Notes under the pieces: model-generated
The model's database searches: none
What the model was told of the DNA's origin: nothing
What the model saw: only the letters and a program-made list of their open reading frames with translations
Assembly (NCBI RefSeq): GCF_036507355.1
Contig: NZ_AP027880.1
Reading direction: 5' to 3' (one strand)
DNA from: Escherichia coli
GTDB taxonomy: Bacteria; Pseudomonadota; Gammaproteobacteria; Enterobacterales; Enterobacteriaceae
Length of the DNA: 10,032 bases
Shown: positions 1-10,032 of the stretch, piece by piece
How positions within the stretch are numbered: the stretch's first letter is position 1
How the letters are laid out: every line of letters begins with the position of its first letter
Position numbers and translations under genes: made by a program

Positions 1-270
1 GACCAACAGGGATACAGCTCTGCCACTGCCGTGAGCGCGGACGGCAGCACGGTCGTGGGGGGGGCTGATTACGATCTCACGGCAGGCGGGACGGGCAGGC
101 ATGCATTTCGCTGGACCAGTGCGGGCGGCATGCAGGATTTGGGCGACTTTACGTCCGACCAACAGGGATCCAGCTCTGCCACTGCCGTGAGCGCGGATGG
201 CAGCGTGGTGGCGGGAATCGCAAGCAATGACGCAGGAGAAATGCGTGCATTTATTTACAAAGCGCCTCAG
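1..270 (+). repeat. Continuation of the 156-bp array: unit 7 (1..156) and degenerate unit 8 (157..about 270).
   Basis: The next expected GACTTxAC phase point is 10021+156-10032 = 145, and GACTTTAC is found at exactly 145. Unit 8 keeps DQQGSSSATAVSADGSVVAG and then diverges (RAFIY). Confidence 0.9.
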
Positions 271-1245
271 TCGCCAACAGACCCTAATCTACCGATCCAA
301 GACTACGAGAATGTCCTCAAGTCGTTTCCTAAGTTGGCCGCCGACAAAGAGTTGGCTGCTGCGCAGCAGCAGCTAGGTATGCAGCGCTTGTTGACTTCGC
401 AATGTTCAGCAGGGCAAGCGGAGCAAAGCTGCTTGGTGGTCTCTGGCTCGTTGGATACGGCAGGCTCTGACGGCCCAATTGGTCGCCGTCAGCAAACAGC
501 GGGGACTGTCACACTAGGGCGAGGTCTTGATGAGCGCTGGACGGTGGGGGCAAGCTTGTCGCTGGCGCACTCGAGCTTGCACCACAACGCAGTAAATCCT
601 AAGAATGCTTATGGCGTAAGTGGCTGGGTGAACTACAGCGAGCATGGCTTGTCCGGTCTTGGCTGGCAGATGGATGCAGCCATTGGTTATGCGAAGAACA
701 AGAGCACCATCACCCGTGGTCAGGGCCTTGAGCATGTTCACCTGGTGCAGGGCACAAGCAATTTAGACACAGTGGCAGCTCGTATTGCCTTGGGGTTTGG
801 CATCCAGCAGCGTCATGGATGGACTTTGACGCCAGCAGTGTCTGTGACACAGCAAAACAGCAAGTTTGCAGCTTACAGTGAGTCGCCTTCAGCCTTTACT
901 GCGTCGTACGATAAATCGGAGCTTAAAACGACTGTGTTGGGAGTGGATCTGAGTGCCAAGAAGTCTTTGAGCGACAAGTCGCAGCTGCGTTTAGCGGTAG
1001 GCGTTGAGCAAGACCTTAAAACGGATCGTATGAAGCTGGCTGGCGTCTCTGATGTTCCAGGAGCGCAGCGATTTAACTTAGAGAGTGCTTTAGAGCGCAA
1101 GAAACTGCGTCCTTATGCCTCTGTGGGATACCGCTATCAAGTCAGTGCACAGGGGGCTGTGTTTGTGAACACAGGCGTGATGCGGGATATGTTCTCGAAC
1201 AAACCCAACGTGGGTGTGCAGGTCGGTTATAGCGCACGGTTTTAA
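1..1245 (+). CDS. Type Va autotransporter, C-terminal portion: HAF-type repeat units 7-8, linker and beta-barrel translocator. The 5-prime part of the same gene is 9010..10032 if the window is circular.
   Basis: The frame is open from nt 1; the ORF track starts it at an internal GTG at 31. Repeat units DQQGYSSATAVSADGSTVVGGADYDLTAGGTGRHAFRWTSAGGMQDLGDFTS and a degenerate last unit (RAFIY) are present. The last ~270 aa show an alternating beta-strand pattern ending ...VGVQVGYSARF, the aromatic terminus typical of outer-membrane barrels. Stop TAA at 1243..1245, followed by an intrinsic terminator. Confidence 0.85.
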   Translation, partial: DQQGYSSATAVSADGSTVVGGADYDLTAGGTGRHAFRWTSAGGMQDLGDFTSDQQGSSSATAVSADGSVVAGIASNDAGEMRAFIYKAPQSPTDPNLPIQDYENVLKSFPKLAADKELAAAQQQLGMQRLLTSQCSAGQAEQSCLVVSGSLDTAGSDGPIGRRQQTAGTVTLGRGLDERWTVGASLSLAHSSLHHNAVNPKNAYGVSGWVNYSEHGLSGLGWQMDAAIGYAKNKSTITRGQGLEHVHLVQGTSNLDTVAARIALGFGIQQRHGWTLTPAVSVTQQNSKFAAYSESPSAFTASYDKSELKTTVLGVDLSAKKSLSDKSQLRLAVGVEQDLKTDRMKLAGVSDVPGAQRFNLESALERKKLRPYASVGYRYQVSAQGAVFVNTGVMRDMFSNKPNVGVQVGYSARF

Positions 1246-1304
1246 CGCGACATAGCGTTCAAACATTTCCTCAGCTCACGGTAAATCCTGCTTATCGATG
1301 GCAA

Positions 1305-1332
1305 CAAAAAAGGCGCTCAAAGCGCCTTTTTT
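1305..1332 (+). terminator. Rho-independent terminator downstream of the autotransporter; looks bidirectional (A-run / hairpin / T-run).
   Basis: AAAAAAGGCGCT-CAA-AGCGCCTTTTTT: stem GGCGCT (1312..1317) pairs with AGCGCC (1321..1326), followed by a T6 run at 1327..1332. Confidence 0.8.
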
Positions 1333-1383
1333 GCGTCTGGTGCTACCATGCGAGCTACATGTATCTCAAAAGGAGTTGATGCC

Positions 1384-1527
1384 ATGTCTGTATCTCTTCG
1401 CCTACCCCCAGAACTGAACCAGCGTCTGAGCAACTTGGCCGAGCGTGAGCTGGAAGCGGTGCGTGCCGGTAAATCCAAGGCCGTGCCTTTGGAAGACGTT
1501 ATGAAGCAGTATGGCTTGGCAGATTGA
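1384..1527 (+). CDS. Short ribbon-helix-helix (CopG/RelB-type) antitoxin remnant, 47 aa, probably carrying an in-frame internal deletion.
   Basis: AGGAG at 1371..1375 lies 8 nt before the ATG at 1384. Product: MSVSLRLPPELNQRLSNLAERELEAVRAGKSKAVPLEDVMKQYGLAD. The N-terminal beta-strand/helix and the C-terminal ...RAGKS...LGLAD tail resemble RelE-partner RHH antitoxins, but the middle is missing. It overlaps the toxin start by 17 nt. Confidence 0.6.
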   Translation: MSVSLRLPPELNQRLSNLAERELEAVRAGKSKAVPLEDVMKQYGLAD

Positions 1528-1711
1528 ACTGTCCGAAGGTGCTGTCAAAAACCTCAAGCAGCTCGACCACCAACACGCCCGACGCATCCTGAGCTTTTTG
1601 CACGGTCGCGTGGCGCAACTTGATGACCCGCGCAGCATTGGCGAGGCACTCAAAGGCTCCAAGCTGGGGGAGCTTTGGAAGTACTGCGTGGGGGACTACC
1701 GAATCATATGA
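1511..1711 (+). pseudogene. RelE/ParE-family toxin, C-terminally truncated (66 aa).
   Basis: MAWQIELSEGAVKNLKQLDHQHARRILSFLHGRVAQLDDPRSIGEALKGSKLGELWKYCVGDYRII matches the canonical RelE/ParE N-terminal two-thirds (...DPR..G..L.G....W.YRVGDYRII). It stops where the family normally continues for ~20-25 aa more. The stop TGA (1709..1711) overlaps the next ATG. Confidence 0.75.
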
Positions 1712-8647: not shown

Positions 8648-8709
8648 TCAGGGGCTTGCCCCTGACGCGCGTTTCTCGGCTTGCCGAGAAACAACTAAGC
8701 GCGCCTTCT
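8648..8709 (+). other. oriT (RSF1010/R1162-like): inverted repeat followed by a nic-core-like sequence.
   Basis: GTTTCTCGG-CTTG-CCGAGAAAC (8671..8692) is followed by AACTAAGCGCGCCTTCT (8693..8709). Compare RSF1010 GTTTCTCGAAGAGAAAC-CGG-TAAGTGCGCCCT: the core TAAGCGCGCCTT matches 10/12. A second hairpin TCAGGGG-CTTG-CCCCTGA lies at 8648..8665. The site is immediately upstream of, and divergent from, mobA. Confidence 0.7.
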
Positions 8710-8792
8710 ATGGAAGGAAGCATACAGCGCATGCACACGCGCTGTCACCATTTGCATAGAATGGTGCATCACGACCAAAGTGAGTAGCACCG

Positions 8793-8903
8793 ATGACGCA
8801 AAACAAATGGCTCAATGAGCGGCTGGCATATATTCGTGGCCTCAAAGCTCCGAATGACCATCTGCTGACCTTAACAGTTGCAGGTGTTGCAGTTCAGATT
8901 TGA
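8793..8903 (+). pseudogene. Truncated, lower-GC paralog of the small ORF at 1708 (36 codons; homology ends around 8870).
   Basis: MTQNKWLNERLAYIRGLKAPNDHLLTLTVAGVAVQI versus MTQDKWLAERLAYLRGLKAPSDQQRLLLML. By hand alignment, 48 of the first 69 nt are identical. It occupies the position divergent from mobA across oriT. Confidence 0.7.
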
Positions 8904-8928
8904 ATCCACCAAGATAGTCGTTGTCGAG

Positions 8929-8952
8929 CTTTGGGGCTTTGGGGCTTTGGTG
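8929..8952 (+). repeat. 8-bp tandem repeat CTTTGGGG x3 (third copy CTTTGGTG), 58-81 bp upstream of the autotransporter start.
   Basis: Direct reading: G-CTTTGGGG-CTTTGGGG-CTTTGGTG-G. Confidence 0.85.
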
Positions 8953-9009
8953 GTAAAGCATTTTCTAAAGGCTCACAAACCACGGTTATCCAATTCACTG
9001 AGATACAAC

Positions 9010-10032
9010 ATGAAGTTTCGAGTCTTTTGCTTGGCAGCACTCCCCTGCTTTTCGGTTTCAGCGCAGTCTTTAGAAAATTTAGGGTCCTTGACGGCCGACC
9101 AACAGGGAGCCAGCTCTGCCACTGCCGTGAGCGCGGACGGCAGCACGGTCGTGGGGGAGGCTGCTTACGATCTCACGGCAGGCGGGACGGGCAGGCATGC
9201 ATTTCGCTGGACCAGTGCGGGCGGCATGCAGGACTTGGGCGACTTGACGGCCAACCAACAGGGATACAGCTCTGCCACTGCCGTGAGCGCGGACGGCAGC
9301 ACGGTCGTGGGGGGGGCTGCTTACGATCGCACGGCAGGCGGGACGGGCAGGCATGCATTTCGCTGGACCAGTGCGGGCGGCATGCAGGACTTGGGCGACT
9401 TGACGGCCAACCAACAGGGATACAGCTCTGCCACTGCCGTGAGCGCGGACGGCAGCACGGTCGTGGGGGGGGCTGATTACGATCGCACGGCAGGCGGGAC
9501 GGGCAGGCATGCATTTCGCTGGACCAGTGCGGGCGGCATGCAGGACTTGGGCGACTTGACGGCCGACCAACAGGGAGCCAGCTCTGCCTATGCCGTGAGC
9601 GCGGACGGCAGCACGGTCGTGGGGGGGGCTAATTACGATCGCACGGCAGGCGGGACGGACTATCATGCATTTCGCTGGACCAGTGCGGGCGGCATGCAGG
9701 ACTTGGGCGACTTGACGGCCAACCAACAGGGATACAGCCATGCCACTGCCGTGAGCGCGGACGGCAGCACGGTCGTGGGGTGGGCTAATTACGATCTCAC
9801 GGCAGGCGGGACGGGCAGGCATGCATTTCGCTGGACCAGTGCGGGCGGCATGCAGGACTTGGGCGACTTGACGGCCGACCAACAGGGAGCCAGCTCTGCC
9901 TATGCCGTGAGCGCGGACGGCAGCACGGTCGTGGGGTGGGCTAATTACGATCGCACGGCAGGCGGGACGGACTATCATGCATTTCGCTGGACCAGTGCGG
10001 GCGGCATGCAGGACTTGGGCGACTTGACGGCC
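9010..10032 (+). CDS. Type Va autotransporter, N-terminal portion: signal peptide plus HAF-type repeat units 1-6. The frame runs open off the window end and continues at nt 1.
   Basis: ATG at 9010 gives MKFRVFCLAALPCFSVSAQS (basic N-terminus, hydrophobic core, AQS cleavage-type motif), then LENLGSLTA and six 52-aa repeats. There is no stop before 10032, which is presumably why it is absent from the ORF track. 9010 and 1 are in the same frame because the window length is divisible by 3. Confidence 0.8.
   Translation, partial: MKFRVFCLAALPCFSVSAQSLENLGSLTADQQGASSATAVSADGSTVVGEAAYDLTAGGTGRHAFRWTSAGGMQDLGDLTANQQGYSSATAVSADGSTVVGGAAYDRTAGGTGRHAFRWTSAGGMQDLGDLTANQQGYSSATAVSADGSTVVGGADYDRTAGGTGRHAFRWTSAGGMQDLGDLTADQQGASSAYAVSADGSTVVGGANYDRTAGGTDYHAFRWTSAGGMQDLGDLTANQQGYSHATAVSADGSTVVGWANYDLTAGGTGRHAFRWTSAGGMQDLGDLTADQQGASSAYAVSADGSTVVGWANYDRTAGGTDYHAFRWTSAGGMQDLGDLTA
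9097..10032 (+). repeat. Tandem array of 156-bp (52-codon) coding repeats, units 1-6. Unit starts: 9097, 9253, 9409, 9565, 9721, 9877.
   Basis: The period is exactly 156 bp, measured from recurrences of GACTTGACGGCC at 9241, 9397, 9553, 9709, 9865 and 10021. Units are near-identical. The HAF(R)W motif matches the HAF family of probable extracellular repeats. Confidence 0.95.

Follow-up and report, generated by a model that had tools for sequence, protein, structure and literature searches.

A 10-kb Escherichia coli plasmid whose public record opens inside the tandem repeat of a predicted propeller autotransporter gene

XatA of Xylella fastidiosa is an AT-1 autotransporter with repeats of about 50 amino acids (aa) that carry an LGxL motif and for which a propeller fold is predicted; autoaggregation and biofilm formation depend on it, and Escherichia coli acquires both traits from it (PMC3426408). 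It is the only characterised protein of such design that we found. The subject of this study is the E. coli contig NZ_AP027880.1, a stretch of 10032 nucleotides (nt) that was analysed whole and is called the window here. It encodes an autotransporter that can be likened to XatA by description, not by sequence: ∼50-aa LGxL tandem repeats, a predicted propeller and an AT-1 barrel are common to both. Six repeats have been reported for XatA, which is chromosomal, whereas the window protein has eight and is plasmid-borne, and roles in autoaggregation and biofilm formation have been shown for XatA only. Both ends of the window fall within the DNA that encodes these repeats. We put a probability of roughly 0.9 on the reading that the window is a complete circular plasmid of E. 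coli of about 10 kb, linearised arbitrarily 10 nt into the seventh unit of the tandem array, and that eight units is most likely the correct number. Public records of the plasmid exist already, and there is no doubt that it is circular.

The array was located with Tandem Repeats Finder (TRF) in the 10032 nt (3 × 3344) of the window. Once the two ends are joined, it comprises seven near-identical units of 156 nt (1–13 differences per 156 nt; 92–99% DNA identity), which we number from 0 and which start at 9087, 9243, 9399, 9555, 9711, 9867 and 10023, followed by a degenerate eighth, unit 7, at 147–302, where 72–74 of the 156 positions differ from the other units. An earlier, sequence-only reading of the window had claimed that its ends join seamlessly, and the three observations behind that claim were all recovered. 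The 24-mer that marks the junction between units, GACTTGACGGCC[G/A]ACCAACAGGGA, is found at 9241, 9397, 9553, 9709 and 9865, and again at 10021 across the joined ends. The 156-nt phase is kept over the join, as the units start at 9087 + 156k and unit 6 continues from 10023 into base 1; the marker GACTTGACGGCC of position 10021 reappears at 145 as GACTTTACGTCC, with two mismatches because unit 7 is degenerate. The frame is kept as well, since an open reading frame (ORF) of 755 aa begins with the ATG at 9010, crosses the junction and closes with a stop that ends at 1245. Unrelated fragments of the array would by chance meet in exact phase in about 1/156 of cases.

Relatives of the plasmid were retrieved from public assemblies by exact look-up of loci encoding the window's relaxase and RepA proteins, the exact relaxase protein being indexed in 47 blocks of the collection. 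Among them, the E. coli contig AATLNC010000078.1 (GCA_012892915.1) matches the window in length (10032 nt) and is its reverse complement, rotated and opened at window 2153/2154. There is one mismatch in the 10032 nt, at window 169, where the window has T and AATLNC010000078.1 has G, resulting in a change from Ser to Ala in the last, degenerate repeat; the T is common to other E. coli copies. This contig represents the same circle with the same genes and eight units, and the array and autotransporter gene are internal and intact in it, with an upstream start annotated for the protein (EFM6529560.1, 796 aa). The window in turn spans the cut point of AATLNC010000078.1. When two linear records have the same length and each runs across the ends of the other, both must derive by permutation from a single circle or from a head-to-tail multimer.

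Two further kinds of record agree with this. NZ_AP027824.1 (p2017.17.01CC_2, plasmid 2 of E. coli 2017.17.01CC; 10103 nt) entered the database as a complete circle; it is collinear with the window, with >99.9% identity, the same backbone and the same unit order. It differs by a 151-nt chimeric unit, an 81-nt in-frame deletion in the Rep_3 gene, one extra G and one single-nucleotide polymorphism. In scaffolds of the MUNK18 gut metagenome, the plasmid is present as two to three head-to-tail copies, which is an assembly artefact typical of small circles. The circular permutation of a ∼10-kb plasmid that had been proposed from the sequence is thus upheld by an independent rotated contig, a circular record and concatemer scaffolds. 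One of the latter, MUNK18 scaffold_442 (27.9 kb), contains about three head-to-tail plasmid copies with a period of 9340 nt, each array collapsed around Ns.

The choice of opening point also bears on annotation. The protein BED24739.1 (VEE46_45070, 334 aa), from a 10032-nt E. coli plasmid record, equals window 241..1245 exactly. That record and the window are very probably one and the same, in which case opening it inside the gene left only the C-terminal remnant annotated.

Among the alternatives to be weighed, one concerns the history of the plasmid and is compatible with a complete circle, namely that two smaller replicons fused into a cointegrate, which could resolve again at a pair of 56-nt direct repeats to give circles of 4065 and 5967 nt. 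The two copies of the repeat (Table 1) are perfect, and they divide the circle into a 4065-nt segment (RepA_C, ParA, a ribbon-helix-helix (RHH) protein, resolvase and EexN) and a 5967-nt segment (Rep_3, Mob, the autotransporter and relB/parE), with one of two unrelated rep genes in each. A Rep_3/Mob/TraD backbone exists on its own as Paracoccus aminovorans plasmid III (NZ_LN832561.1; 4158 nt), with matches of 86–95% to the second segment, and the 5967-nt module minus its cargo corresponds to this plasmid. This plasmid and MOBQ plasmids such as pJARB-RN-0061_VEB-1 share Rep_3 at 94%, the mob-oriT-traD region at 86% and an identical block resembling an origin of transfer (oriT) with the window; both lack the autotransporter and relB/parE cargo, and the Paracoccus plasmid also lacks the 4065-nt module. 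The 5′ end of traD occurs twice in the window, at 8794–8851 (86% identical to Paracoccus traD) and at 1708–1834 (95%), and the two copies bracket the autotransporter and relB/parE cargo. The 56-nt repeats suggest a cointegrate, or else an insertion flanked by a duplicated site. Against a cointegrate, all of the long contigs retrieved hold both segments in the same order, with no separate 4.1-kb or 6-kb circle seen. We regard this history as a tentative possibility.

A second alternative accepts the circle and questions the count: the seamless join might derive from a graph path or from end trimming, and the true number of units could lie above or below eight. The sequence-only reading had warned of exactly this risk, and as a general warning it was borne out among the relatives, with broken contigs, Ns, collapsed units and an extra unit. 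For the window itself the doubt largely fell away, eight units being backed by an independent contig, an open frame and the counts in homologues. With units that are 92–99% identical, the array is apt to be broken or collapsed in short-read assemblies; its longest exact repeats are 146 and 139 nt. The units are distinguishable, so that reads or k-mers above 146 nt are able to order them. Four draft contigs (L007, L008, L011 and L012) end within the array on both sides, and a run of Ns lies in the array of the MUNK18 scaffolds. Some metagenome proteins, which fall in the same 90% cluster or in a sister one, comprise a single unit or two with a frame that seems intact (P0135, 391 aa; P0138, 443 aa); such proteins cannot form a propeller. 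Counts above eight are also found, with nine units in NZ_AP027824.1, around 9–11 in AP027811.1, where the array is scrambled and a piece of flank duplicated, and at least ten implied by a repeated 312-nt higher-order unit pair in L011. Moreover, the window record and NZ_AP027824.1 both begin inside the array, as if their ends came from short-read graph contigs. AP027811.1 (10486 nt, “complete”) was sampled at the same place, Thai Binh in Viet Nam; it is ∼96% identical with >100 gap openings, has only short hypothetical ORFs annotated and looks like an unpolished long-read assembly.

The ninth unit of NZ_AP027824.1 repays a closer look. Its 151 nt correspond to a tandem duplication, in which window[1..59] runs on into window[9941..10032]. 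The join created thereby, GTCGTGGG/CTAATTAC, falls within a run of Gs and disrupts the reading frame. As a result, the autotransporter in that record is annotated by RefSeq as only 423 aa. Such a join looks like an artefact or a pseudogenising event, and argues against the count of nine as a guide to the window. A coincidence between this extra unit and the break point of the window was considered and rejected, as the placement by alignment is arbitrary and the only new join is 59/9941.

Several lines of evidence favour eight. AATLNC010000078.1, a contig from another project and of exactly 10032 nt, contains an identical array in its interior, and the ORF is intact. The order of unit types u2–u7 is the same in another E. 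coli contig (P0124) and, apart from the extra unit, in NZ_AP027824.1. Repeats were also counted in the 120 best homologues with a hidden Markov model built from the window's own units; eight matches was the commonest count (72/120), and was obtained for nearly all full-length autotransporters of ∼700–790 aa, from Comamonas, Bordetella avium, Pseudomonas and sphingomonads. These counts are informative because the repeats of the homologues are diverged and easier to assemble. We therefore consider eight units likely to be correct for this molecule and a wrong count improbable, while the unit counts of the related records are unreliable.

A number of points weigh against our reading and should be set beside it. 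The unit count rests on assembled records rather than on individual reads. Counts other than eight are on record (nine in NZ_AP027824.1, at least ten in L011 and seven in the Castellaniella orthologue), and true polymorphism among carriers would mean that eight need not hold for every one of them. A maximum k of 127 for SPAdes has been reported in a study of Vietnamese E. coli (PMC10621974), which is exceeded by the 146-nt exact repeat, although that paper, a likely source of the record, names neither the strain nor the accession. With regard to the wider biology, NZ_AP027824.1 is typed as non-mobilizable by PLSDB although it carries the relaxase.

The weakest alternative, that the window is a piece of a larger molecule and holds parts of two autotransporter genes, a 3′ end on the left and a 5′ end on the right, had been named in advance as the case that would overturn circularity and can be excluded, as it explains why both ends fall in repeat units and nothing more, whereas the ends join in phase and in frame, AATLNC010000078.1 of the same total length crosses the junction and has its own break inside the window, a circular record is deposited, and the concatemer scaffolds repeat the same gene order.

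With the window taken as a complete circle with an eight-unit array, the encoded protein can be considered as a whole. A signal peptide is recognisable by eye (MKFR, a hydrophobic core, SAQ/S), and a search of NCBIfam matched eight stretches to TIGR02913 (HAF repeat; E = 1e-49, 166 bits vs a cut-off of 22.65). The motif reads HAF seven times and RAF once, and LG-x-[L/F] occurs eight times, both with a spacing of 52 aa. Pfam places an autotransporter beta-domain at residues 499–729. An AlphaFold2 model built from 39 homologues has a mean predicted local distance difference test score (pLDDT) of 90.8, with low values at residues 1–18. In this model, residues 20–428 contain 32 strands, equivalent to eight four-stranded blades, the last of which is three-stranded on its own and has the N-terminal strand 20–25 available to complete it; a helix at 443–473 precedes the strands of the barrel. 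The C-terminal 12-strand barrel, the pore-spanning helix before it and a terminal aromatic residue are those of a type Va autotransporter. The passenger is thus modelled as an eight-bladed beta-propeller formed by the eight 52-aa HAF/LGxL repeats. A Sec signal peptide would deliver the protein to the periplasm, the barrel would insert into the outer membrane, its pore occupied by the linker helix, and the eight repeats would fold outside the cell into a propeller that the N-terminal strand closes. The role of the propeller, judged by analogy to XatA, is probably in adhesion or autoaggregation. The terminator-like hairpin 3′ of the gene (Table 1) was not listed by a consensus terminator scan, which probably missed it because its A/T runs pair and extend the stem.

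A profile search of the sequences in the PDB gave no match, and the propeller passenger fold is seen in none of the best-matching solved autotransporter structures. Our search of the literature on HAF-repeat autotransporters found nothing relevant, and two papers on autotransporter classification mention neither propellers nor HAF repeats. Among sequence relatives that match TIGR02913, those of Castellaniella, B. avium, Comamonas and Pseudomonas protegens have the same architecture in ∼700–750 aa, with identities to the window protein of 84% for Castellaniella, 67% for B. avium and 55–60% for Comamonas. P. fluorescens Pf-5 has been listed as carrying a XatA homologue (PMC3426408); a protein of P. 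protegens, which may or may not be that homologue, shares 48% identity with the window autotransporter. The Castellaniella protein (P0001) shares the MKFRVF start and a barrel region that is 97% identical, and has seven units. A scan for related loci with the single protein found only Castellaniella, where contig NZ_BAAAEX010000007.1 of Castellaniella ginsengisoli (2712 nt) has ∼95% DNA identity to the window from 8985 to 1421, between flanks unlike those of the plasmid. This hints at an autotransporter gene that travels as cargo, with a possible origin in Alcaligenaceae. The downstream flank of that contig opens an ORF which, read by eye, encodes a putative insertion sequence (IS)-type transposase.

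The repeats of the Comamonas and B. avium homologues are far more diverged from one another than those of the window, and the high unit identity here accordingly fits a recent homogenisation of the array. Carriers are recorded with 7, 8, 9 and at least 10 units, and it is unlikely that this variation is real and not an artefact of assembly. Were it real, a plasmid-borne propeller at the cell surface would change in blade number, and at times in reading frame, through recombination or slippage between near-identical 156-nt units.

The sequence-only reading had also described the remainder of the window as a self-sufficient backbone with rep, par, res and mob genes, an oriT and an origin of vegetative replication (oriV). 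The genes were confirmed by Pfam and NCBIfam searches, which found RepA_C, Rep_3, ParA, RHH, serine resolvase, EexN, MobA/MobL and RelB-like proteins (Table 1). The two origins remain plausible candidates that are inferred from the five iterons at 2179–2414 and from an invariant block at 8671–8708, respectively. The iterons lie downstream of repA, beside the gene, with an A+T-rich stretch just upstream (∼2120–2160), and we infer that RepA binds them. Replication would run via RepA_C and the iterons and/or the Rep_3 initiator, partition would use ParA and the RHH protein, its likely partner, and the serine recombinase would resolve multimers. The resolvase is annotated as 210 aa in relatives, and its longest ORF reaches 5310; the parE-like ORF is probably truncated at the joint with traD.

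An exact look-up of the longest Rep_3 ORF in public assemblies returned no match because the choice of start codon differs. Annotated lengths of Rep_3 range from 232 to 265 aa, which raised the possibility of a second variable array; this was rejected, as the DNA is identical in all relatives except NZ_AP027824.1. That record lacks 81 nt (27 codons) near the Rep_3 start, at its positions 2840–2850, corresponding to window 6247–6327, between 7-nt TGGCCGA direct repeats; the stretch is kept in 7/7 other relatives compared.

Around the resolvase and eexN genes lies a 54-nt inverted repeat (4473–4526 / 5576–5629, 98% complementary), each arm of which holds a near-palindrome, TTGGATTG..CAATCCAA. 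The 9-mer GATTACACG occurs four times in 4511–5913, vs 0.02 in shuffles. These elements could serve as res sites, as operators or as the boundaries of a segment that can be inverted.

For mobilisation, the plasmid would rely on a MobQ-type relaxase acting on the oriT-like site at ∼8671–8712. The relaxase scores 84.6 bits against the NCBIfam MobQ model, below the equivalog cut-off of 200, and related plasmids are typed as MOBQ by PLSDB. A 38-nt block (8671–8708), made up of the inverted repeat and a nick-like stretch, is invariant between the window, P. aminovorans plasmid III and pJARB-RN-0061_VEB-1, in flanks that are ∼84% identical. We presume a resemblance between this candidate oriT and that of R1162/RSF1010, and offer it as a lead only. 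The replicon of NZ_AP027824.1 is typed with the ColRNAI cluster (PLSDB/MOB-suite), despite its RepA_C and Rep_3 initiators.

Table 1. Positions of the features of the window, on the strand as deposited
Feature	Position	Strand	Basis or remark
Array continuation: unit 6 (to base 146) and degenerate unit 7 (147-302)	1..302	+	Units read in register
Autotransporter gene, 3′ part: rest of unit 6, unit 7, linker helix, 12-strand beta-barrel, end ...YSARF and stop	1..1245	+	
Terminator-like hairpin AAAAAAGGCGCT CAA AGCGCCTTTTTT, 3′ of autotransporter gene	1306..1332	+	Read from sequence
relB-like antitoxin, 47 aa	1384..1527	+	NF048017, E = 2e-11, below curated cut-off
parE-like toxin ORF, 66 aa	1511..1711	+	ORF list; PF05016 match, marked weak, on identical gene in relatives
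traD-like ORF, 79 aa	1708..1947	+	First 127 nt 95% identical to start of Paracoccus plasmid III traD
56-nt perfect direct repeat, copy 1	2023..2078	+	100% identical to copy 2
Five iterons GGGGTCCGATTTAACG, candidate oriV	2179..2414	+	5 matches vs 0 in shuffles
repA, RepA_C family, 331 aa	2447..3442	-	PF04796, E = 8.6e-20
RHH protein	3470..3727	-	PF23807, E = 7e-7
parA partition ATPase	3729..4379	-	NF041546, E = 8e-48, 162.6 bits vs cut-off 180
Serine recombinase/resolvase	4558..5190	-	PF00239, PF02796; annotation of near-identical public record
EexN-family lipoprotein	5202..5456	-	NF033894, E = 1e-19, above cut-off
56-nt perfect direct repeat, copy 2	6088..6143	+	100% identical to copy 1
Rep_3-family initiator, second replication gene, start codon uncertain	6117..6986	+	PF01051, PF21205
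MobA/MobL relaxase, 506 aa	7079..8599	-	PF03389, E = 6e-30, 105 bits
Candidate oriT: inverted repeat GTTTCTCGGC/GCCGAGAAAC, then AACTAAGCGCGCCTTC	8671..8712	+	Between mobA and truncated traD start
Second, truncated traD 5′ copy, adjoining oriT	8794..8903	+	
Autotransporter gene, 5′ part: start codon, signal peptide MKFRVFCLAALPCFSVSAQS, units 0-5, first 10 nt of unit 6	9010..10032	+	ORF across junction
156-nt tandem array, units 0-5 and start of unit 6	9087..10032	+	TRF: period 156, 6.1 copies, 94% matches

The main weight of these findings lies in the quality of the record, that of an ordinary public plasmid which starts inside a tandem repeat. The practical effect is mis-annotation, as seen in the 334-aa remnant of the matching record and in the gene of NZ_AP027824.1, which is split by a probable assembly artefact. 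Unit counts taken from short-read or metagenome contigs should be distrusted when this gene is compared across assemblies. If the variation in unit number did prove to be true, the plasmid would carry a mobilizable variable adhesin that switches on and off or alters its own surface.

The plasmid has a G+C content of 63%, and that of E. coli, at roughly 51%, is well below this. Contamination in place of an E. coli plasmid was judged unlikely, because many E. coli assemblies, spread over several accession series, contain identical proteins, as do gut metagenomes of pigs or poultry. A 63% G+C plasmid with cargo like that of Alcaligenaceae and Comamonadaceae is thus circulating in gut E. coli, and bears an uncharacterised autotransporter with a predicted eight-bladed propeller.

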